The position numbers and the translations under genes are program-made. A DNA stretch of 32,000 bases from Xylanibacter ruminicola 23 (GTDB lineage: Bacteria; Bacteroidota; Bacteroidia; Bacteroidales; Bacteroidaceae), in contig NC_014033.1 in NCBI RefSeq assembly GCF_000025925.1, positions 660,001-692,000 of the forward strand, given 5' to 3'. This document shows positions 18,080-30,444 of the stretch, one piece after another. The notes under the pieces were generated by a model that was not told the origin of the DNA, did no database searches, and saw nothing but the letters and a program-made list of their open reading frames with translations. The stretch's first letter is position 1; each line of letters opens with the position of its first letter.

Positions 18080-18511
18080 TTAATCGTTCCAGTTCAGTTT
18101 CTCTACATAAGCATCAAACTTTAGCTCTTCGTGGCCGATGGCTTTAAGGGCATCTTCAATTTGCTTGATATCGCTGGGTGAACAGAGTTGGGCACCCTTG
18201 CGACGTTCGAAGTAAGGATTACGACCAAACTTGCCCTGCAGTCGATACATAAACGTCTGGTACTCATCGGGTAGCATCTTCTTCTGCATGTTCTTAAAGC
18301 CTTTTCCATAAACCTGAGGCTTATCATCGCGATAGTATTCGCAACCTTCGCCAGTTTGGGTTAGCTGTGGATTCAGAATTGTTACTGCTGTCAGGTTGCT
18401 AGGCAAGTTCTGCATAGCCAACTGGCGCAAACAGTGGTCAGCCATCTTGCAATCTGCCTTGATGCAATGCAGATAGCAGCCAGGAACTTCATCGTAATTA
18501 ATCTTGCTCAT
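18080..18511 (-). CDS. Cys-rich hypothetical protein of Bacteroidales mobile elements
   Basis: The start is moved to the ATG giving MSKINYDEVPGCYLHCIKADCKMADHC (a cluster of 4 Cys). The track's GTG start at 18544 lies inside a repeat motif. The protein is adjacent to the VirE-like gene. Confidence 0.6.
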   Translation of the reverse strand: MSKINYDEVPGCYLHCIKADCKMADHCLRQLAMQNLPSNLTAVTILNPQLTQTGEGCEYYRDDKPQVYGKGFKNMQKKMLPDEYQTFMYRLQGKFGRNPYFERRKGAQLCSPSDIKQIEDALKAIGHEELKFDAYVEKLNWND

Positions 18512-18533
18512 AAATAGTTTTGTTATTTTTGTT

Positions 18534-18635
18534 AAACCTCTCACTCAAATACACTGAAAGTCGCATCTGTAAAGGAGTTGAGGCTTATGAGAGGTTTGTG
18601 TAACCTCTCACTATACCTCTCACTCAACCTCTCAC
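18534..18635. repeat. Left array of the GTGAGAGGTT motif (5 copies, including one hairpin pair)
   Basis: AACCTCTCAC at 18534, 18602 and 18626. ACCTCTCAC at 18615. The opposite-orientation TGAGAGGTT at 18588 forms a 9-bp stem with the 18602 copy. Confidence 0.85.
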
Positions 18636-18646
18636 TTTTTTCATCG

Positions 18647-19858
18647 TCATGCTGCATCAACAGGCACCACATTGTAGTATTTTACATGTCCGCGCTCAGT
18701 ATGCTCAAAGCCCAGATCTTTCATCGCCAATCCCAGATGCACCTTGGTGCTAACGGTCTTTTTAAGCGAAGGATACTCCTTGCTAATCAACTCCAGCATC
18801 TGCGTGCAGTTCATTGCTTTTACCTTCTCGCCTTCGTTAGGTTTGCGGAAACATGCCTCAATAATCTCTGTAATGTCCTTTTCGTCGGTATAGTTCTGGT
18901 TCAGCTCCTGAATACGTGCCACCTGCTCGTTGGTAAACCAGTAAGGTGCCTTCAACTCGTTCACCTCATACACCAACTGAGCATATAGCTGCTCGTAATC
19001 AATCTCACCAGCATTGTCGATATACTGCCCATCAGGAATCTCAATACAGATGAATCGACGACTACCTGTTACATCCGACAAGGGATGGGGATTGTTGGTA
19101 GTGGCCACGAACGATGCATAACGAGGGCGATCCTGCTGCGAACTGCCATAAATAGTACGTCCGTTAACCTTGATTTTCGAGAGCGTCTGCTTCAAGGCCG
19201 CCTGCTGACTGGGGCGGATGGCATCCAACTCGTCTAGGTTCACCAGCAGGTTGTTAGTCAAGGCCATCTCCTTATCGAACTTGTTTGATAGGTTCAGATG
19301 GTCGAGATAATACTCCTGTAGTTCAGGAGGCAGCAAGCGCGCTATGAAGGTTGATTTGCCACAGCCCTGTGAACCAATCAACGTGGGCACACTCTCGTTG
19401 GCGTGCAGCTTATCCTTCTGCAACCAATGCGCCACAGCCGAGCGGAACCAGATAATCAGGAAGTCCAACTGCTCGCTGCTAATGCCAGGCAAGCGGCTGA
19501 ACAACTTGGCCAGATGATTCTGCCCGTCCCATTTGGGCAGTTGCGATAGAAACTCGCTGATAGGATTGTACACGGGCGTTGCATCCGAGTAGATTACCTC
19601 CTGGATATCAGTCTTAGGACTGTTTTTGGTAATCTGCTCCTGCTTAGCCTTGCGAACGATGCTGTTCAGGGCTTCAGGTGTTAGCGTTCGCCAAACAGAC
19701 TGATTATCAGTCTGTTTGGTAGTCAAGATTAGATACTCTACCTTACCGTTGAGAATGTTTCGACGGAACAGGTAATTGTCAGTAAGGAACTGCTCAACCG
19801 CGAGCGAGTTCTGCAGAGAGGCTCCTAGAGACTCTCCGTTAATTGTCATTTTATTCAT
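18647..19858 (-). CDS. VirE/VapE-family P-loop NTPase (primase/helicase-associated protein of mobile elements)
   Basis: 403 aa with Walker A GSQGCGKST and Walker B LLVNLDELD. The overall resemblance is to Bacteroidales virulence-associated-E / DUF3874-type proteins. Confidence 0.75.
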   Translation of the reverse strand: MNKMTINGESLGASLQNSLAVEQFLTDNYLFRRNILNGKVEYLILTTKQTDNQSVWRTLTPEALNSIVRKAKQEQITKNSPKTDIQEVIYSDATPVYNPISEFLSQLPKWDGQNHLAKLFSRLPGISSEQLDFLIIWFRSAVAHWLQKDKLHANESVPTLIGSQGCGKSTFIARLLPPELQEYYLDHLNLSNKFDKEMALTNNLLVNLDELDAIRPSQQAALKQTLSKIKVNGRTIYGSSQQDRPRYASFVATTNNPHPLSDVTGSRRFICIEIPDGQYIDNAGEIDYEQLYAQLVYEVNELKAPYWFTNEQVARIQELNQNYTDEKDITEIIEACFRKPNEGEKVKAMNCTQMLELISKEYPSLKKTVSTKVHLGLAMKDLGFEHTERGHVKYYNVVPVDAA

Positions 19859-20139: not shown

Positions 20140-20222
20140 CATTAAATGTGCGTGTGTTTCTGTAATGTTCTCCATAAAATCAAGTTTTCTGTCTAAAGTT
20201 TGGAACTTTCGGCTTTTTTATT

Positions 20223-20230
20223 TACTTTTG
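20223..20230 (+). promoter_or_regulatory. -7 box (TACTTTTG) for the MNT/HEPN pair
   Basis: TAnnTTTG match 21 nt upstream of the ATG at 20252. Confidence 0.45.
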
Positions 20231-20251
20231 CAAGCGAAATACATATTTGAT

Positions 20252-20545
20252 ATGGGAAAGGATGAATGTATCAAACTGCTGAAGAAGTATATGACTATAC
20301 TTAAAGAAAAGTATGGTATAACTTCTTTGTCTCTGTTTGGTTCTACTGCACGTGGAGAGCAAACGGAGCAGAGTGATATAGATCTGTTTGTAGATACGCA
20401 AACACCAAATCCTTTCTTGCTGCAGGATGCTAAAGAGTTCTTGGAAAAAGAAACAGGAACCTCCGTTGATATTATCCGCAATCATCAAAACCTTAACCCA
20501 CGATTAAAAAAACGTATCTTAAAAGATGGAATCTTTATCTTCTGA
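20252..20545 (+). CDS. Nucleotidyltransferase-domain antitoxin (MNT / MntA-like)
   Basis: The GSTARGEQTEQSDIDLFV motif (GSxxRG...DxD). The start is moved to the ATG at 20252, downstream of the promoter box. Confidence 0.85.
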   Translation: MGKDECIKLLKKYMTILKEKYGITSLSLFGSTARGEQTEQSDIDLFVDTQTPNPFLLQDAKEFLEKETGTSVDIIRNHQNLNPRLKKRILKDGIFIF

Positions 20546-20915
20546 AAGCAAGGGAATAGCATTAGATATTCTTGAAGACATTCTTTCGGCTATCGAGAGG
20601 CTTGAAGATCGTACAAAGGATGTGCAAACTATAGATGATTTTCTATGTTCGTCTTCTGGTATGGTATTGCTTGATGCTACATGTATGCTGCTGATAGCAA
20701 TAGGCGAGAGTCTTAAGAATCTTGATAAGACTACAGACGGTAAACTTCTTCCTACATATCCTTCTATTCCTTGGAAAAACGTGAAAGGTATGAGGGATAT
20801 TATTGCTCATCATTATTTCGATGTTGATGCATCCCAAATCCTATGGATAATCAAGAATGAGATTGCTCCATTAAAGACCGCTATCCAGTTCTTTATTGAT
20901 GAGTTGAAGAAATAA
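20526..20915 (+). CDS. HEPN-domain toxin (DUF86 / HepT-like)
   Basis: The GMRDIIAHHY motif (Rx4H), a 20-nt overlap with the MNT gene, and 129 aa. Confidence 0.85.
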   Translation: MESLSSESKGIALDILEDILSAIERLEDRTKDVQTIDDFLCSSSGMVLLDATCMLLIAIGESLKNLDKTTDGKLLPTYPSIPWKNVKGMRDIIAHHYFDVDASQILWIIKNEIAPLKTAIQFFIDELKK

Positions 20916-21143: not shown

Positions 21144-22784
21144 CTAAACTTCTTTAGATAGTAATTCTTTGGTCAGAATTTCATCAATTCGGTCTAAGTC
21201 CCAATATGGAATTTCAATAAGTCGAATGTCGTTGTCTTTGCTGTATTTACGTAGATAACGGTCGCGATGTTGTTGAACGGTGAAGTTACGGATACGACCT
21301 TTATAATAAAAGTCAATGTCTTCATAATGCTGCTCACCGTGAAATTCTATTATAATATTATGGCCATTGTAGCTTGGCAACCAAAAGTCGGCAGAGAGAT
21401 ACTGCAATGGCAGCGTGGGGTCGTTATTGGGGATAGGCTGTTCTTGGATGAATTCGATAATGTCGTGTTTCTGCAACCAACGACGTACCTCTGCTTCGCC
21501 CATAGACTCTTTAAACTCTGCAGCACAAAGGGGGCATGAACCATTGACGGTTCGTAAATTGTTGTCAGGAGTAGTTTGAAACCAATGGTCATGTATGCAG
21601 CATCGAATCCAAATTAGGCTGTCATTGTTCACATAATCCTCATGGGCACGACAATAATCATAGCGATTTTTTCCGTACTTTGCTTCGCATTGGGCAATCC
21701 ACTCATCGCATCGTTGTAATGGCGGTTTTTTGTTGGGATAGTTGGCGCACTTGGGACATCCACATCCTTGACTTACATGGACGTCATAGCGCTGTTTCTG
21801 TAGTCCATGCTCCTTACAGATATAGTGTATGTAGTCTGCCTTCGTTCTTGGCGGGACACCTACGTATTGGAATTTGTCGCCATGAACTGCTTGCGCATTC
21901 TTTATCCAGTCGGCAGGCCAGAATTTTCCATTGCAGTAGTCGCAACCCTTACCATCGAGCCACCATTTTGCATCATGTATTATCTTACCGTGCTTGGCAC
22001 AAGTGACGCTTATCTTAGTATGCACAGAAACTTTACGCTTACGTTCAAAGGAGAAATCATTATTTCGATATATGATGTTTACACGTCGATAGAATTCTTT
22101 GGCGGTTAGTTTTGGATTATCCTTGGGGGCGGGTATTCCACAGCATTTCCAGCAACCGTGAGGAGGTCGTTTATAGTCTCCTTTGCTTATACCAACAAGG
22201 AGTATTCTTGGTTTTATCTCAAAAATGCCATGGTCTCGACAAATCAAAGTCACATTTTTATCGTTGCCTTGATAGTCGACGAGTGAGGTATCTAACTGGT
22301 CTCCATACATGTTATGTACGCGCTCTATAAAGCGGGCTTCCTCAAAGCTCTTACCATGCCAATGTTGTAGGTAGGCTTCTTTTTCTCGTTTTTTAGCTTC
22401 TTTTGCAGCTTTTTCTGCGGCAATTTGCATTGGAGTCTTTGCTTTCCTAGATGATATGGCTTGTATTCTCCCTACACGACTATTCTTTTCACATAACTTG
22501 AGATATTTATTCCAATCTTTGCCGTAGTCTGTTTTGTGAGTTATCTCAGCCCTACATATAGGACAGCCTGTTGGCGTAAATGTACCATGTGGCTTCATTA
22601 TATGGTTTTGCGCCATAGCTACACGAAAATGATAGTCATGTTTGGGACAATATATGATTATCGGTTTTTTTCCGCCATCATATACACTCTCTGAATAGTC
22701 ATATCGGTTCCCCCATATCTCATGAGCCTGCTCAATATAACGAGCTAGAGACTTTGTGTTGTCTGGAATATTGCTATTTTTCAT
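21144..22784 (-). CDS. Protein with five tandem zinc-ribbon modules and a C-terminal Vsr-like / PD-(D/E)xK endonuclease domain (homing-endonuclease-like)
   Basis: Five repeats of the pattern (Y/H)G..(Y/F)DY...x...C..HG.x(10-25).GC..C. The C-terminus (EAEVRRWLQKHDI...ADFWLP...IIIEFHGEQHY...RLIEIPYWD) matches the phage/bacterial nuclease family with the IEYDGxQH core. Confidence 0.7.
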   Translation of the reverse strand: MKNSNIPDNTKSLARYIEQAHEIWGNRYDYSESVYDGGKKPIIIYCPKHDYHFRVAMAQNHIMKPHGTFTPTGCPICRAEITHKTDYGKDWNKYLKLCEKNSRVGRIQAISSRKAKTPMQIAAEKAAKEAKKREKEAYLQHWHGKSFEEARFIERVHNMYGDQLDTSLVDYQGNDKNVTLICRDHGIFEIKPRILLVGISKGDYKRPPHGCWKCCGIPAPKDNPKLTAKEFYRRVNIIYRNNDFSFERKRKVSVHTKISVTCAKHGKIIHDAKWWLDGKGCDYCNGKFWPADWIKNAQAVHGDKFQYVGVPPRTKADYIHYICKEHGLQKQRYDVHVSQGCGCPKCANYPNKKPPLQRCDEWIAQCEAKYGKNRYDYCRAHEDYVNNDSLIWIRCCIHDHWFQTTPDNNLRTVNGSCPLCAAEFKESMGEAEVRRWLQKHDIIEFIQEQPIPNNDPTLPLQYLSADFWLPSYNGHNIIIEFHGEQHYEDIDFYYKGRIRNFTVQQHRDRYLRKYSKDNDIRLIEIPYWDLDRIDEILTKELLSKEV

Positions 22785-22975: not shown

Positions 22976-22983
22976 TACTTTTG
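22976..22983 (+). promoter_or_regulatory. -7 box (TACTTTTG) with an upstream TTTG at 22952-22955; divergent promoter for the 139-aa gene
   Basis: TAnnTTTG plus a -33-like TTTG with a 20-nt spacer. It leaves a ~110-nt leader before the ATG at 23100. Confidence 0.5.
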
Positions 22984-23099
22984 CGCCCAGAATAAGCATC
23001 AAGAGTGGCATAATGCACACCAACCGGCCTACACAGAATCGTTGGCAGCGGTGGTAAAAGGATGCGAGTGAATGTTTAATCCACTAAAGATAAACGATT

Positions 23100-23519
23100 A
23101 TGGAAATCAAGAAGATTGAAAAGAGTGACTTTGTAATGTATCCACGTATGCAACATCGTGGGTTGGAGTTCAGGCATGTAGAACGTGATGCGTTTAAGGC
23201 AGAGTTGCGCCATGTTGAGGAACATGGTGACTATTGGCTGATTCATCAGCAGTCGAAGCCTCATGTTGTGGCCCACGTCCAATTACCCAAGACGGAAGCA
23301 GAGTTTGATAATATCCTTGGCTGGTGTTTGGGACAAAACCATTGGTGCGAGTACATTGAGGGGGATTTCTCTTTCCTCTGTGTTATAGCAGGCTTCAATG
23401 CTGCAGAACTCACTCCTAAATACCCAGACTTTATCAGCGAACGTGTTTATGCTCTTGGTGATGCTACTCGCTGGTGGTATGAGTATGGAAAGGATGTTCT
23501 GATACAAAAGACAACATAA
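23100..23519 (+). CDS. Hypothetical protein (139 aa)
   Basis: ORF with an ATG start behind its own promoter. No family is recognised. Confidence 0.55.
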   Translation: MEIKKIEKSDFVMYPRMQHRGLEFRHVERDAFKAELRHVEEHGDYWLIHQQSKPHVVAHVQLPKTEAEFDNILGWCLGQNHWCEYIEGDFSFLCVIAGFNAAELTPKYPDFISERVYALGDATRWWYEYGKDVLIQKTT

Positions 23520-23566
23520 GGATATCAGATTATTCTTTGAAAATGGCTATGATAAGATTTTTTTCG

Positions 23567-23574
23567 TATATTTG
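23567..23574 (+). promoter_or_regulatory. -7 box (TATATTTG) for the DUF4041/T5orf172 gene
   Basis: TAnnTTTG match 25 nt upstream of the ATG at 23600. Confidence 0.45.
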
Positions 23575-23599
23575 CAGCATCATTTAAAAGATTCTGATT

Positions 23600-25288
23600 A
23601 TGGCAATATTTGATTTTCTAAAATCCCACGAAGAAAAAGTAAACGAGAGAAAAGCAGAAATAGCAGCTTTGCAGCAACAAGTTGTTTCTTTACGTGACGA
23701 GGTGGCTTCTGAGGAGAAAGAAAAAGAAGAGTTAAGAAGTCAGATTGTTGAATTGAAGAATCTTGTTGTGGCTCAAAAGAATGAACTATATGATTTGCAA
23801 CAGGACAAAGAAAAAACAAAGAAGCAAGTTGATAGCCTTCATGAAAGATATGAAAAGTTGCATGCTTTGTTAACGAGATCAACCAGAAAATTAAATTGTA
23901 TGGAATCTTCTGATGAATTCTTGTTATTTGACGTTGGATCTCCATATTTGGTTGCGTTGGATGAAGTAGATTATGAAGAATTGTGTAAATATCACAATCT
24001 TAGAGAAGAAAATCATTCTTATTATGATAAGAAGAAGCAAAGAGAGGATGAATTACATGCCATAGAGCTGAAAATTGAAGATGCAAACAAAGAACTAACC
24101 AATCTTCGAGAGGAATTGGTAAAACAGCGTGATATTAATTATGCCTATGAAATAAACAATATTAAAGAACAAACTAGTGAATATATTCATGAATTGAATG
24201 ACATAAAAGCAGATATTAATAGTTATCTGAAAAATCATAAAGACAAGATTCGCTTAGAGGTAATACATGAAATATACCAAAGAGCAAATCTTTGTGAAGA
24301 TGAGGCTTTGAGAAATTTGCGAGAAACTATTGACGGTGTTAATATTGACCAGATACAACTTGCTTTGGATTTAAAGAAAATGTTGTTGAAACCTCCATAT
24401 AAAGTTAATCCACAGGAATGGACTTTTGCTGAAATATATTTGTGTAATTTGTTAAATGAATTTGCACAACTCAATATTGTTAAAATCATAAAAGAAATGA
24501 AAAACTCAGATTGGGATACGATTAAAGTCAAAATAGGTTCTCTTGTTAATATTTTAGAATTGCGTATGATTGGAACGGGATTTCGAATAGATCCATCATA
24601 TGGAAAGAATCTATTCAATTATATGGAAGCAAAGTATTTATATATACAAAAGCAACAGATTGAACGAGAAAAGGAGCGAGAAGAACGTGAGGCACAACGT
24701 GAATATGAGCGTGCTATAAAAAAGGCTCTAAAAGATGAAGAAAAGGCACAAGAGGCTCTTGAAAAGAAGAAAAGAGAAATGGCAGAAGCGCAGACTCAGG
24801 AAAAGATACAGAAATTGCAGGAACAGATAAAGGGACTGGAGAATGCTCTTGTTGAAGCTCGTGAACTAAGAGAGAGAGCAATGAGTATGGCACAACAAAC
24901 TAAGATAGGCTATGTTTATGTTATCTCTAATATAGGTTCTTTTGGAAAAGATGTCTATAAGATTGGAATGACTCGTCGATTAGACCCGATGGAGCGTATT
25001 ATGGAATTAAGTAACGCTAGCGTTCCATTCCCATTTGACGTACACACCTTTATATATAGTGAGGATGCACCAGCATTGGAGGCAGACTTACATAGAAGAT
25101 TCGATGCCAAGAAGGTTAACTCTATAAACTATCGCAAAGAATATTTCAATGTGACGTTAGATGAAATAAAAGCGGCATTGAAAGAGAAAGGAGTTGATGC
25201 AAACTTTGTAGACGAACCTGATGCATTCCAATACAGAGAAAGCCTTATGAAAAATCGCGATGGTATTCTCTCTACAATACAGCAGTGA
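23600..25288 (+). CDS. Coiled-coil DUF4041-type protein with a C-terminal T5orf172 / MUG113 (GIY-YIG-superfamily) domain
   Basis: The N-terminal and central regions are long E/K-rich heptad coiled coil. The C-terminus (GYVYVISNIGSFGKDVYKIGMTRRLDPMERIMELSNASVPFPFDVH...YFNVTLDEI) is the T5orf172 signature. Confidence 0.8.
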   Translation: MAIFDFLKSHEEKVNERKAEIAALQQQVVSLRDEVASEEKEKEELRSQIVELKNLVVAQKNELYDLQQDKEKTKKQVDSLHERYEKLHALLTRSTRKLNCMESSDEFLLFDVGSPYLVALDEVDYEELCKYHNLREENHSYYDKKKQREDELHAIELKIEDANKELTNLREELVKQRDINYAYEINNIKEQTSEYIHELNDIKADINSYLKNHKDKIRLEVIHEIYQRANLCEDEALRNLRETIDGVNIDQIQLALDLKKMLLKPPYKVNPQEWTFAEIYLCNLLNEFAQLNIVKIIKEMKNSDWDTIKVKIGSLVNILELRMIGTGFRIDPSYGKNLFNYMEAKYLYIQKQQIEREKEREEREAQREYERAIKKALKDEEKAQEALEKKKREMAEAQTQEKIQKLQEQIKGLENALVEARELRERAMSMAQQTKIGYVYVISNIGSFGKDVYKIGMTRRLDPMERIMELSNASVPFPFDVHTFIYSEDAPALEADLHRRFDAKKVNSINYRKEYFNVTLDEIKAALKEKGVDANFVDEPDAFQYRESLMKNRDGILSTIQQ

Positions 25289-30095: not shown

Positions 30096-30161
30096 TGTGT
30101 TTTTCATAGTATTAGATTTAAGGTTAACAAAGGTTAGGGTCACAGCGGTGACCCTTTTTTT
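30096..30161 (+). ncRNA. Candidate ~65-nt small RNA (orphan promoter plus intrinsic terminator, no ORF)
   Basis: -33 TTTG (30060-30063), a 19-nt spacer, then -7 TATCTTTG (30083-30090). There is no ATG before the hairpin gggtcac agcg gtgaccc (30137-30154) and its T7 run. The 5' end is estimated, not observed. Confidence 0.3.
30137..30161 (+). terminator. Intrinsic terminator (7-bp GC-rich stem plus T7)
   Basis: gggtcac / gtgaccc stem, loop agcg, then ttttttt. It could also terminate the MBL hydrolase transcript. Confidence 0.7.
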
Positions 30162-30444
30162 ATATCCATCTTCTGCGTTTGCCCTTATCTTTGCCAAACA
30201 GCGAGCTGTAGCCTTTCATGAGTTTGCGTACCAGTAGAATAGCATCTACAGCCATAAAACCATTGCTTACCAGGCTGGCAATATAGTCGCCCTTCGACAC
30301 CTCGTCGCGCTTCAGGAATGTCTGGTTCCAAAGCGACGAAACCTTGTCCTTATCTTTCTGGATCTCGTCAAGCAAAGCATCCTTGCGCTCGCGAATCTCT
30401 TCGAGCGTGCAAAAATCGGTGGTTGTTTTCTTGTTGTACGGCAT
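30160..30444 (-). CDS. Hypothetical protein (94 aa); third gene of the YtxH trio
   Basis: ORF 5 nt downstream of the holin-like gene. No family is recognised. Confidence 0.55.
   Translation of the reverse strand: MPYNKKTTTDFCTLEEIRERKDALLDEIQKDKDKVSSLWNQTFLKRDEVSKGDYIASLVSNGFMAVDAILLVRKLMKGYSSLFGKDKGKRRRWI

Follow-up and report, generated by a model that had tools for sequence, protein, structure and literature searches.

We analysed a pair of neighbouring genes in a 32,000-nucleotide stretch of Xylanibacter ruminicola 23 DNA (contig NC_014033.1, positions 660,001 to 692,000 of the forward strand). This whole stretch is called the window below, and all coordinates are window positions unless a locus is named. 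The two open reading frames (ORFs) encode proteins of 139 and 562 amino acids (aa). A sequence-only reading had proposed that they form a dedicated two-gene defence module, with the smaller protein as partner of a nuclease. Our results argue instead for two separate units. Probably, the 562-aa protein is a stand-alone nuclease of the SNIPE type, and the 139-aa protein belongs to a portable riboswitch/small-protein accessory of defence islands. The more important result concerns the second unit, in which a predicted S-adenosylmethionine (SAM) riboswitch stands before a strongly conserved orphan protein that heads more than 10 unrelated kinds of defence cassette in rumen Prevotella. The SNIPE family and the SAM-I/IV riboswitch class were already known. 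The target of the riboswitch, the recurrence of the cassette before diverse defence systems and the orphan protein are new.

The features of the two units are as follows.

22976..22983, + strand: predicted Bacteroidetes-type -7 promoter box TACTTTTG (TAnnTTTG) of the riboswitch/139-aa transcript, read from the sequence; left edge of the module
22991..23101, + strand: SAM-I/IV riboswitch aptamer (RF01725), from cmscan/Rfam and covariation
22996-23000 paired with 23061-23065, + strand: riboswitch P1
23005-23018, + strand: riboswitch P2, with a G.A mismatch at 23017 in the window copy
23019-23055, + strand: riboswitch P3
23067-23085, + strand: riboswitch P4
23037-23043 (AAUCGUU, 3′ end of the P3 loop) with 23093-23099 (AACGAUU), + strand: PK-2-like pseudoknot, directly before the AUG at 23100
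23100..23519, + strand: 139-aa orphan protein, conserved 'leader' gene of defence cassettes (284 homologues, dN/dS, AlphaFold2)
23494..23500, no strand: right-hand recombination junction of the ~500-bp module, within the last 8 codons of the small ORF, from the break in homology
23567..23574, + strand: separate predicted -7 promoter box TATATTTG of the 80-nt spacer, serving the SNIPE-like gene, read from the sequence
23600..25288, + strand: 562-aa SNIPE/PD-lambda-1 homologue without transmembrane (TM) anchor (PADLOC, BLASTP, hhalign, AlphaFold2, Foldseek)

A predicted SAM-I/IV riboswitch in the leader of the small gene

Using cmscan, the leader of the small gene in the window matched the Rfam family RF01725 with 54.5 bits, as compared to a gathering score of 41.1 (E 4.8e-8). 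Nine other loci gave scores of 48.7 to 59.2 bits, and all 10 scanned leaders were above the gathering score. The riboswitch is kept, and passes the RF01725 threshold, even in a relative whose protein is 35% identical and which precedes a Type III restriction-modification (R-M) system. When all fetched loci were considered, the riboswitch core was found upstream of 56 of the 59 evaluable genes of the 139-aa family. Of the three genes lacking it, one is a recombinant (L030) and the other two are the most distant in the family. The contigs of the most distant members measure about 650 nt and offer no gene context. A 21-mer of the riboswitch had no match in IMG/VR.

Covariation was examined in 20 distinct leaders, with the Rfam structure completed by a pseudoknot proposed in this analysis. 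Pairing was observed in 94.3% of the cells, as compared to 29-50% when the partners were slid. Six pairs showed double-sided changes, and 0 of 500 shuffles was as good. The pseudoknot was 91% paired, with two compensatory pairs, as illustrated by AUCGUA/UACGAU in L016. In several of the leaders, which were inspected by eye, its pairing reaches into the AUG itself. The pseudoknot links L3 to the 3′ tail and matches the PK-2 topology of the SAM-IV and SAM-I/IV classes (PMC6890682). Conservation is higher in the 105-nt leader than in the coding sequence; the leader contains long invariant blocks and a variable hairpin insertion, found in L3 in some copies. The single-strand minimum free energy fold was uninformative (z = -1.06) because the real fold contains a pseudoknot. 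At the position equivalent to 23017, the closest relative of the window leader (L007) carries the canonical C.

Overall, the data point to a SAM-I/IV riboswitch of known class. From the family assignment and the start-covering pseudoknot, we infer that SAM is the ligand. The sequence-only reading was concerned with 23100-25288 and had not picked up this element (22991-23101), which ends at the ATG of the small gene.

A strongly conserved orphan protein

The 139-aa protein has 284 close homologues, none with a Pfam domain. A profile search of 1.8 billion representative proteins returned 134 representatives, many of them fragments, all from the same small family. In one-genome-per-species GTDB contigs, 24 loci with a homologue were found, all in Prevotella or Prevotellaceae. 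The ratio of nonsynonymous to synonymous substitution rates (dN/dS) had a median of 0.08 in 98 pairs, in which dS was saturated at about 1.5. These values indicate that the small gene is under strong purifying selection and encodes a real gene product. In three metagenome-assembled genomes (RUG10713, Tb.RUG.396 and RGIG4329), two copies of the small gene are present, each with different cargo.

The AlphaFold2 model (mean predicted local confidence, pLDDT, 81.7) shows a beta-meander followed by a long C-terminal helix. Foldseek searches with this model gave nothing significant in PDB or BFVD (best E values 0.14 and 0.022, TM-score about 0.3). A weak likeness to kinase N-lobes and to a type III secretion chaperone was rejected. 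The protein matched nothing in Pfam, NCBIfam or PADLOC and has no TM segment. Its isoelectric point (pI) is 5.7. In the wider family, the conserved residues are mostly hydrophobic or aromatic (P15, R16, G21, F32, P54, F69, L73, Y85, G98, W125, W126), a pattern that may hint at a binding protein rather than an enzyme. Two possible affiliations were discarded. A phage or plasmid origin was rejected with 0 tblastn matches in 50,697 phage and 72,556 plasmid records. A relationship to the UpxY/UpxZ-like leader genes of Bacteroides capsule loci was rejected as no NusG or UpxZ Pfam match was obtained.

The small gene precedes many kinds of defence cargo

A gene resembling that of the 562-aa protein lies downstream in 3 of the 24 loci only (L002, L007, L015). 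Clustering of the neighbours showed that both flanks are hypervariable, the small gene being the sole constant. The downstream cargo is co-directional and typically 70-130 nt from the small gene, and its restriction systems are of Types II, III, IIG and IV. The following cargo was found.

Type III R-M: L004, L010, P0059 cluster, L060
Dcm with HATPase_c_3 and Z1: L013
GmrSD with D12 methylase: L019
Eco57I-like Type IIG/ISP-like enzymes: L009, L023, and P0035, P0056 and P0048 clusters
Type II endonucleases: L021
AbiH: L005
AbiL: L006
DUF4007 with STAND NTPase: L020
UvrD-like helicase: L018
HIRAN proteins: P0032

Upstream of the module we found Cas9 (L001) and zinc-finger/restriction endonuclease (REase) proteins, but also ordinary metabolic genes. 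The Cas9 gene of L001 (4884-9113; 1409 aa; HNH_4, RuvC_III and Cas9_a) lies about 0.9 kb upstream of the riboswitch/139-aa module. No gene of methionine or SAM metabolism was adjacent to the small gene in the loci examined.

The association was also examined in the reverse direction, with 19 metagenome loci carrying SNIPE-like relatives. The small gene was upstream in eight of them, two of which represent the strain of the window itself; L044 and L046 end at a contig edge and are not evaluable. SNIPE-like genes without the small gene were found in L047, L052 and L053, as well as in all distant relatives. SNIPE, the reference system, works as a single gene (PMC13190303). The SNIPE-like gene is thus one of many cargos, and a two-gene module is therefore not supported. 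The co-occurrence that the sequence-only reading had suggested checking proved inconsistent in both directions (3 of 24 loci in one, 8 with and 3-5 without in the other). Its proposal that the partner is a sensor, an inhibitor or an antitoxin of this nuclease found no specific support.

Between the module and the SNIPE-like gene, a conserved protein of 289-290 aa is encoded in L015 (3925-4794), L044 and L046. The same family occurs in L011 (10493-11365), before a 748-aa unknown protein. It has no Pfam or PADLOC match and may be a further defence-island gene.

Module boundaries and promoters

The DNA homology of the window to the other loci has sharp bounds, reaching from 22987-22996 to about 23494, eight codons short of the stop of the small gene. 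At the left edge, almost every locus has a -7 box 8-12 nt upstream of the conserved GCATCAAGAG. At the right edge, homology to about 20 loci with different cargo ends at 23485-23507. In L052 (1790-1936), the last ~25 nt of a window-type small ORF are followed by the spacer and by a 90%-identical SNIPE-like gene, while an unrelated ORF replaces the module, with neither riboswitch nor small gene. Since L052 keeps tail, spacer and SNIPE-like gene from ~23494 on, this position behaves as a recombination junction.

The 80-nt spacer carries a -7 box of its own (23567-23574), which had been missed when the two genes were first described as a pair. A TAnnTTTG box occurs 37-58 nt after the stop of the small gene in 12 of 14 loci with co-directional cargo, as compared to an estimated chance expectation of roughly 0.05 per spacer. 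No terminator-like site was found in the spacer. The arrangement can thus be described, with predicted promoters, as a promoter-riboswitch-small gene unit followed by a promoter-cargo unit, in which read-through may occur but would not be needed.

Several copies of the module are altered. Tail sub-families of the small ORF (LLLNNV*, ISIK*) are common to loci with different cargo. The small gene is truncated at its 5′ side in L021 (641-883), L023 (2877-3122) and L024 (193-466). In L030, upstream of 1710, a full small gene is present and the riboswitch is replaced by unrelated sequence. From their sequences, the truncated copies and L030 point to a module that is still decaying and recombining. 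The idea of a conserved mobile-element backbone was dropped, as VapE-like primase genes stand upstream in the window and in one cluster only. No integrase or tRNA gene is adjacent to the module.

The 562-aa protein is a homologue of SNIPE/PD-lambda-1

The regions of the 562-aa protein, all on the + strand, are as follows.

23603-24289: N-terminal long helices, aa 2-94 and 122-230 (AlphaFold2)
24392-24604: central helical unit, aa 265-335 (AlphaFold2)
24599-24901: linker helices, aa 334-434 (AlphaFold2, alignments to SNIPE)
24908-25186: GIY-YIG/T5orf172 nuclease, aa 437-529 (Pfam, Foldseek)
25079..25081: codon of E494, counterpart of the SNIPE catalytic residue E414 (alignment, codon checked)

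PADLOC assigned the 562-aa protein to PD-Lambda-1 (3.9e-90), with aa 296-553 aligned to profile positions 209-473 of 496. PD-lambda-1 (Vassallo 2022, PMC9519451), later named SNIPE (Saxton 2026, PMC13190303), is a characterised single-gene anti-phage nuclease. It cleaves phage DNA at the membrane during injection, and its DUF4041 region binds DNA and tape-measure proteins (PMC13190303). The statement of the sequence-only reading that this architecture had no experimentally defined function is therefore outdated.

As a reference copy of SNIPE, we used the Escherichia phage PhiR26_1 protein annotated 'PD-lambda-1', in which 9 of 9 published SNIPE residues are in place (E223, N250, L253, W257, E264, K305, I308, T319, E414). 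BLASTP aligned aa 356-549 of the 562-aa protein to SNIPE 277-470, covering linker helix and nuclease, with 53% identity. Alignment of the family profile with hhalign gave a probability of 100 over the same range. The long helix that precedes the nuclease in SNIPE is present, as the AlphaFold2 model has helices 334-396 and 402-434 and the alignments start at aa 356-358, corresponding to SNIPE 277-279. A search of PDB by sequence gave no match.

The predicted C-terminal T5orf172/MUG113 domain of the GIY-YIG superfamily was borne out, MUG113 and T5orf172 being the only Pfam matches (E 1e-17 and 1e-18, aa 437-529). Foldseek searches with the model retrieved T5orf172/GIY-YIG folds with a root mean square deviation of 2-4 Å. 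The GIY motif reads GYVYV and the YIG motif YKIGMT. Alignment showed that the catalytic residues, whose verification had been proposed, are intact: E494 corresponds to E414, and G437, Y440, Y453, K454, I455, G456, R459, R460, E494, N507 and N510 are invariant in 38 relatives. By homology, the 562-aa protein is an anchor-less Bacteroidota member of the SNIPE/PD-lambda-1 family. The intact GIY-YIG residues support its prediction as a nuclease-type defence effector.

The other parts of the protein are less close to SNIPE. In the AlphaFold2 model, helices H2-94, H122-204 and H334-434 flank a small central unit. The two long-helix blocks around a central part, as previously described, are thus found again, with a helical total of ~280-300 aa and not the 420 aa claimed for the coiled coil. 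No TM helix was detected (maximum 19-residue Kyte-Doolittle mean 1.15, as compared to 3.37 for SNIPE aa 6-24). The protein remains compatible with the SNIPE family because 34% of the recognised homologues also lack a TM helix; in SNIPE homologues, the N-terminal region is hypervariable (Saxton et al., PMC13190303). The DUF4041 label given to the protein could not be confirmed. Indeed, Pfam PF13250 (DUF4041) did not match it even at E<=10, as compared to 1.2e-19 for E. coli SNIPE, and was found in 0 of its 120 closest homologues. The hhalign alignment stops short of the central region, whereas the PADLOC family profile aligns from aa 296 and the best BFVD match spans 381 columns.

The N-terminal 225 aa show 32% identity between close relatives whose C-terminal part is 65-69% identical. 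Comparison of 23600-24290 with L007, L049, L050 and L058 showed that the N-terminal ~225 aa have been swapped between close strains (32% identity), whereas the DNA of the C-terminal part shows 93% identity from 24663 onward. These alignments indicate mosaic evolution of this adapter region.

Proposed explanation and alternatives

We propose that the two genes belong to two separate units. Unit 1 (23600-25288) would be a stand-alone defence nuclease of the SNIPE/PD-lambda-1 type with its own predicted promoter. Its GIY-YIG domain is joined by a long helix to the small central unit, with a variable N-terminal coiled coil in place of the TM anchor. By analogy with SNIPE, it would cut incoming phage DNA, and the swappable N-terminal region would set where, or against which phages, the nuclease acts. 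Unit 2 (22976-23519) would be a portable cassette of ~500 bp made of promoter, SAM-I/IV riboswitch and 139-aa orphan protein. With SAM bound, the pseudoknot would pair the 7 nt before the AUG; translation would be off at normal SAM and on when SAM falls. As the pseudoknot would mask the start region in the SAM-bound RNA, we infer that the protein is made at low SAM. Unit 2 recurs, often in several copies per genome, before many unrelated defence cargos, mostly SAM-dependent R-M enzymes. Because of this recurrence, we take the 139-aa protein as a putative low-SAM-induced accessory of defence islands, which would act in trans and would not be a sensor or antitoxin of the SNIPE-like nuclease. Among the functions that can be conjectured for it, the most likely would be a response, back-up or protective, to the loss of SAM-dependent restriction, as might be brought about by a phage SAM lyase or starvation.

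Several observations weigh against this explanation. Homology gives no role for the 139-aa protein, and its fold has no match in PDB or BFVD. The window aptamer has A at 23017, giving the G.A mismatch in P2, where 18 of 20 family leaders have C. Some copies of the module adjoin non-defence genes (GH43, glycosyltransferases, IS200 transposase, RadC). R-M systems are the commonest defence systems anyway, and their dominance among the cargo is no proof of a SAM-specific link. As no terminator separates the two genes, read-through may couple them to some extent. The module stands upstream of about half of the evaluable close SNIPE-like relatives (8 with, 3-5 without), which may reflect a looser functional tie between module and SNIPE-like cargo. 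Finally, the central domain of the 562-aa protein could not be identified as DUF4041 and the TM anchor is missing, so the SNIPE mechanism may not transfer unchanged.

Four other explanations were weighed. The one ranked least likely, and in our view very improbable, is a true two-gene system in which the 139-aa protein would be the dedicated sensor, inhibitor or antitoxin of the TM-less nuclease, for example shielding host DNA. In E. coli, SNIPE deprived of its TM anchor is toxic (PMC13190303), so an anchor-less homologue would need another restraint. The genes indeed share one direction, with an 80-nt gap that holds no terminator, and the module stands upstream in eight metagenome loci carrying close SNIPE-like relatives. 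However, 21 of the 24 genome loci containing the small gene carry other cargo, the SNIPE-like gene is preceded by a predicted -7 box of its own, and the SNIPE-like cassette occurs without the small gene in L047, L052 and L053. The small gene was never found with distant SNIPE homologues, and if the inhibitor were produced at low SAM only, the nuclease would go unrestrained while cells grow normally. A lack of any link to defence is somewhat less improbable, though still doubtful. The small gene would then be a member of a SAM regulon, or the ~500 bp a selfish, recombination-prone repeat serving as a portable homology arm for cassette exchange. The sharp homology edges on both sides, the tail sub-families shared across different cargo, the truncated copies (L021, L023, L024), the L052 remnant and the non-defence neighbours would all fit. 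Against it, selection acts on the protein itself, as seen from its dN/dS of 0.08, a methionine/SAM metabolism gene is never adjacent, orientation and 70-130-nt spacing to the cargo are consistent, and the R-M association persists at 35% protein identity.

The two remaining explanations keep the low-SAM logic and specify what the small protein would do. In a guard model, the riboswitch would sense the collapse of SAM caused by phage SAM lyases and release the 139-aa protein as a second-line anti-phage effector or trigger. In a wider wording, SAM would fall through SAM lyases or lost methylation capacity, and a hitherto unknown small effector or regulator would back up SAM-dependent restriction. 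In either wording we hold the model to be possible but rather unlikely. It would account for an OFF-type pseudoknot over the start region, for a small gene under strong purifying selection and in multiple copies, and for cargo made mostly of enzymes that depend on SAM for methylation or cleavage (Type III, Type IIG/ISP-like, Dcm-linked). Phage SAM lyase is reported to defeat both Type I R-M and BREX (10.1101/2023.02.27.530186). Yet the protein has no toxin-like or enzymatic motif, its conserved residues being mostly hydrophobic or aromatic. SAM-independent cargo (SNIPE-like, AbiH, AbiL) occurs too, no SAM lyase was shown here in Prevotella phages, and no precedent was found in the literature. 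Restriction alleviation, which we regard as unlikely, shares the riboswitch logic. When SAM is scarce and host DNA under-methylated, the small protein would damp the nearby nucleases and prevent self-restriction. The binder-like conservation pattern and the position of the small gene at the head of R-M operons, some with helix-turn-helix (HTH) controller-like genes, would agree with this. However, it is difficult to conceive of one inhibitor for cargo nucleases that are structurally unrelated, SAM is already required for cleavage by Type III and many Type IIG enzymes, and the protein (pI 5.7) is too little acidic for a DNA mimic.

Setting of the locus

The ORF coordinates confirmed the layout given by the sequence-only reading: the 139-aa (23100-23519) and 562-aa (23600-25288) ORFs lie on the + strand with an 80-nt spacer and diverge from a 546-aa gene (21144-22784, - strand). 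The described AT-rich island also stood, with a G+C fraction of 0.33-0.40 over 20-25 kb of the window as compared to 0.45-0.55 elsewhere in it. The nearest relatives come from rumen and gut Prevotella(ceae) assemblies. A position of the locus in a defence island, as had been suggested, is supported, with a MntA/HepT pair and a VapE-like gene nearby. Since the toxin-antitoxin pair and the VapE-like gene are present in the region, the island setting is real.

Just upstream of the pair, in the AT-rich island, overlapping genes encode a MntA-like nucleotidyltransferase (126 aa) and a HepT-like RNase (129 aa) (20165-20915, + strand), that is, a type VII toxin-antitoxin pair. The 546-aa protein contains five spaced CxxC units (around aa 74, 211, 281, 343 and 417), had no match in a Pfam scan and shows weak likeness to PADLOC PDC-S69 in its C-terminal region. 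The analogous upstream gene of L003 encodes 7 DUF4379 treble-clef zinc fingers and a MTES_1575 REase domain. The 546-aa protein is probably a zinc-finger-repeat nuclease. At 18080-19858 (- strand), a VapE-like/DUF5906/DUF3874 protein (403 aa) and a DUF6078 protein are encoded, types usual in mobile elements of Bacteroidales. In the P0059 cluster, the module likewise has a VapE-like gene upstream, a longer one; this is not general. A small RNA of the Bacteroidetes FopS family (RF04319) was found at 30097-30164 (+ strand), with an Rfam score of 79.2 bits as compared to a gathering score of 56.

Comparison with known systems

The 562-aa protein resembles SNIPE/PD-lambda-1 in its C-terminal GIY-YIG/T5orf172 nuclease and the preceding long helix (53% identical), in keeping the catalytic Glu and the GIY, YIG and Arg motifs, and in its elongated, helical build with a small central unit and a variable N-terminal 'adapter'. 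In contrast to SNIPE, which has a TM helix at aa 6-24 and matches PF13250, it has neither TM helix nor Pfam DUF4041 match. Its N-terminus is a coiled coil of about 230 aa, it is 62 aa longer and its host belongs to Bacteroidota. A riboswitch module precedes the 562-like gene in some strains. The gene thus adds an anchor-less, coiled-coil-headed Bacteroidota branch to the SNIPE family, and such anchor-less forms raise the question of how cutting of host DNA is avoided.

The window leader resembles RF01725 riboswitches (SAM clan CL00012) in its above-threshold score, in its covarying P1-P4 and L3-to-3′-tail pseudoknot, and in its position in a 5′ leader, ending at the start codon. Whereas RF01725 is tied to genes of methionine/SAM metabolism, the window aptamer precedes an orphan 139-aa gene heading defence cassettes. 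Moreover, the pseudoknot here covers -7 to -1 of a Bacteroidetes start site lacking a Shine-Dalgarno sequence, and some copies have a hairpin insertion in L3. To our knowledge, metabolism and transport are the functions to which riboswitches have been linked until now. The searchable literature, the coverage of which is incomplete, yielded no report of a defence locus linked to a riboswitch. A putatively SAM-gated gene travelling with restriction systems suggests a direct coupling of cofactor status and immunity.

As a small conserved gene upstream of varied defence operons, the 139-aa gene is comparable to the WYL-type repressors BrxR/CapW, to RptR (PMC12255303) and to the controller C proteins of R-M systems. 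In contrast to these, its product has no HTH or WYL domain, and DNA binding is not indicated. The small gene would itself be riboswitch-gated, and the cargo genes have their own predicted promoters. Through its downstream neighbours, the sharply bounded cassette is a handle for new Prevotella defence genes.

Guard-type systems fire when a defence is disarmed, as do PARIS sensing Ocr, PrrC guarding EcoprrI and retrons guarding RecBCD. If the guard model were true, the module would likewise be a back-up encoded beside the protected system and triggered by phage counter-defence, and would represent the first riboswitch-gated anti-phage function, spread as a portable 500-bp cassette. Unlike in PARIS, PrrC and retrons, an RNA would read a metabolite level as the trigger, in place of a protein-protein interaction.

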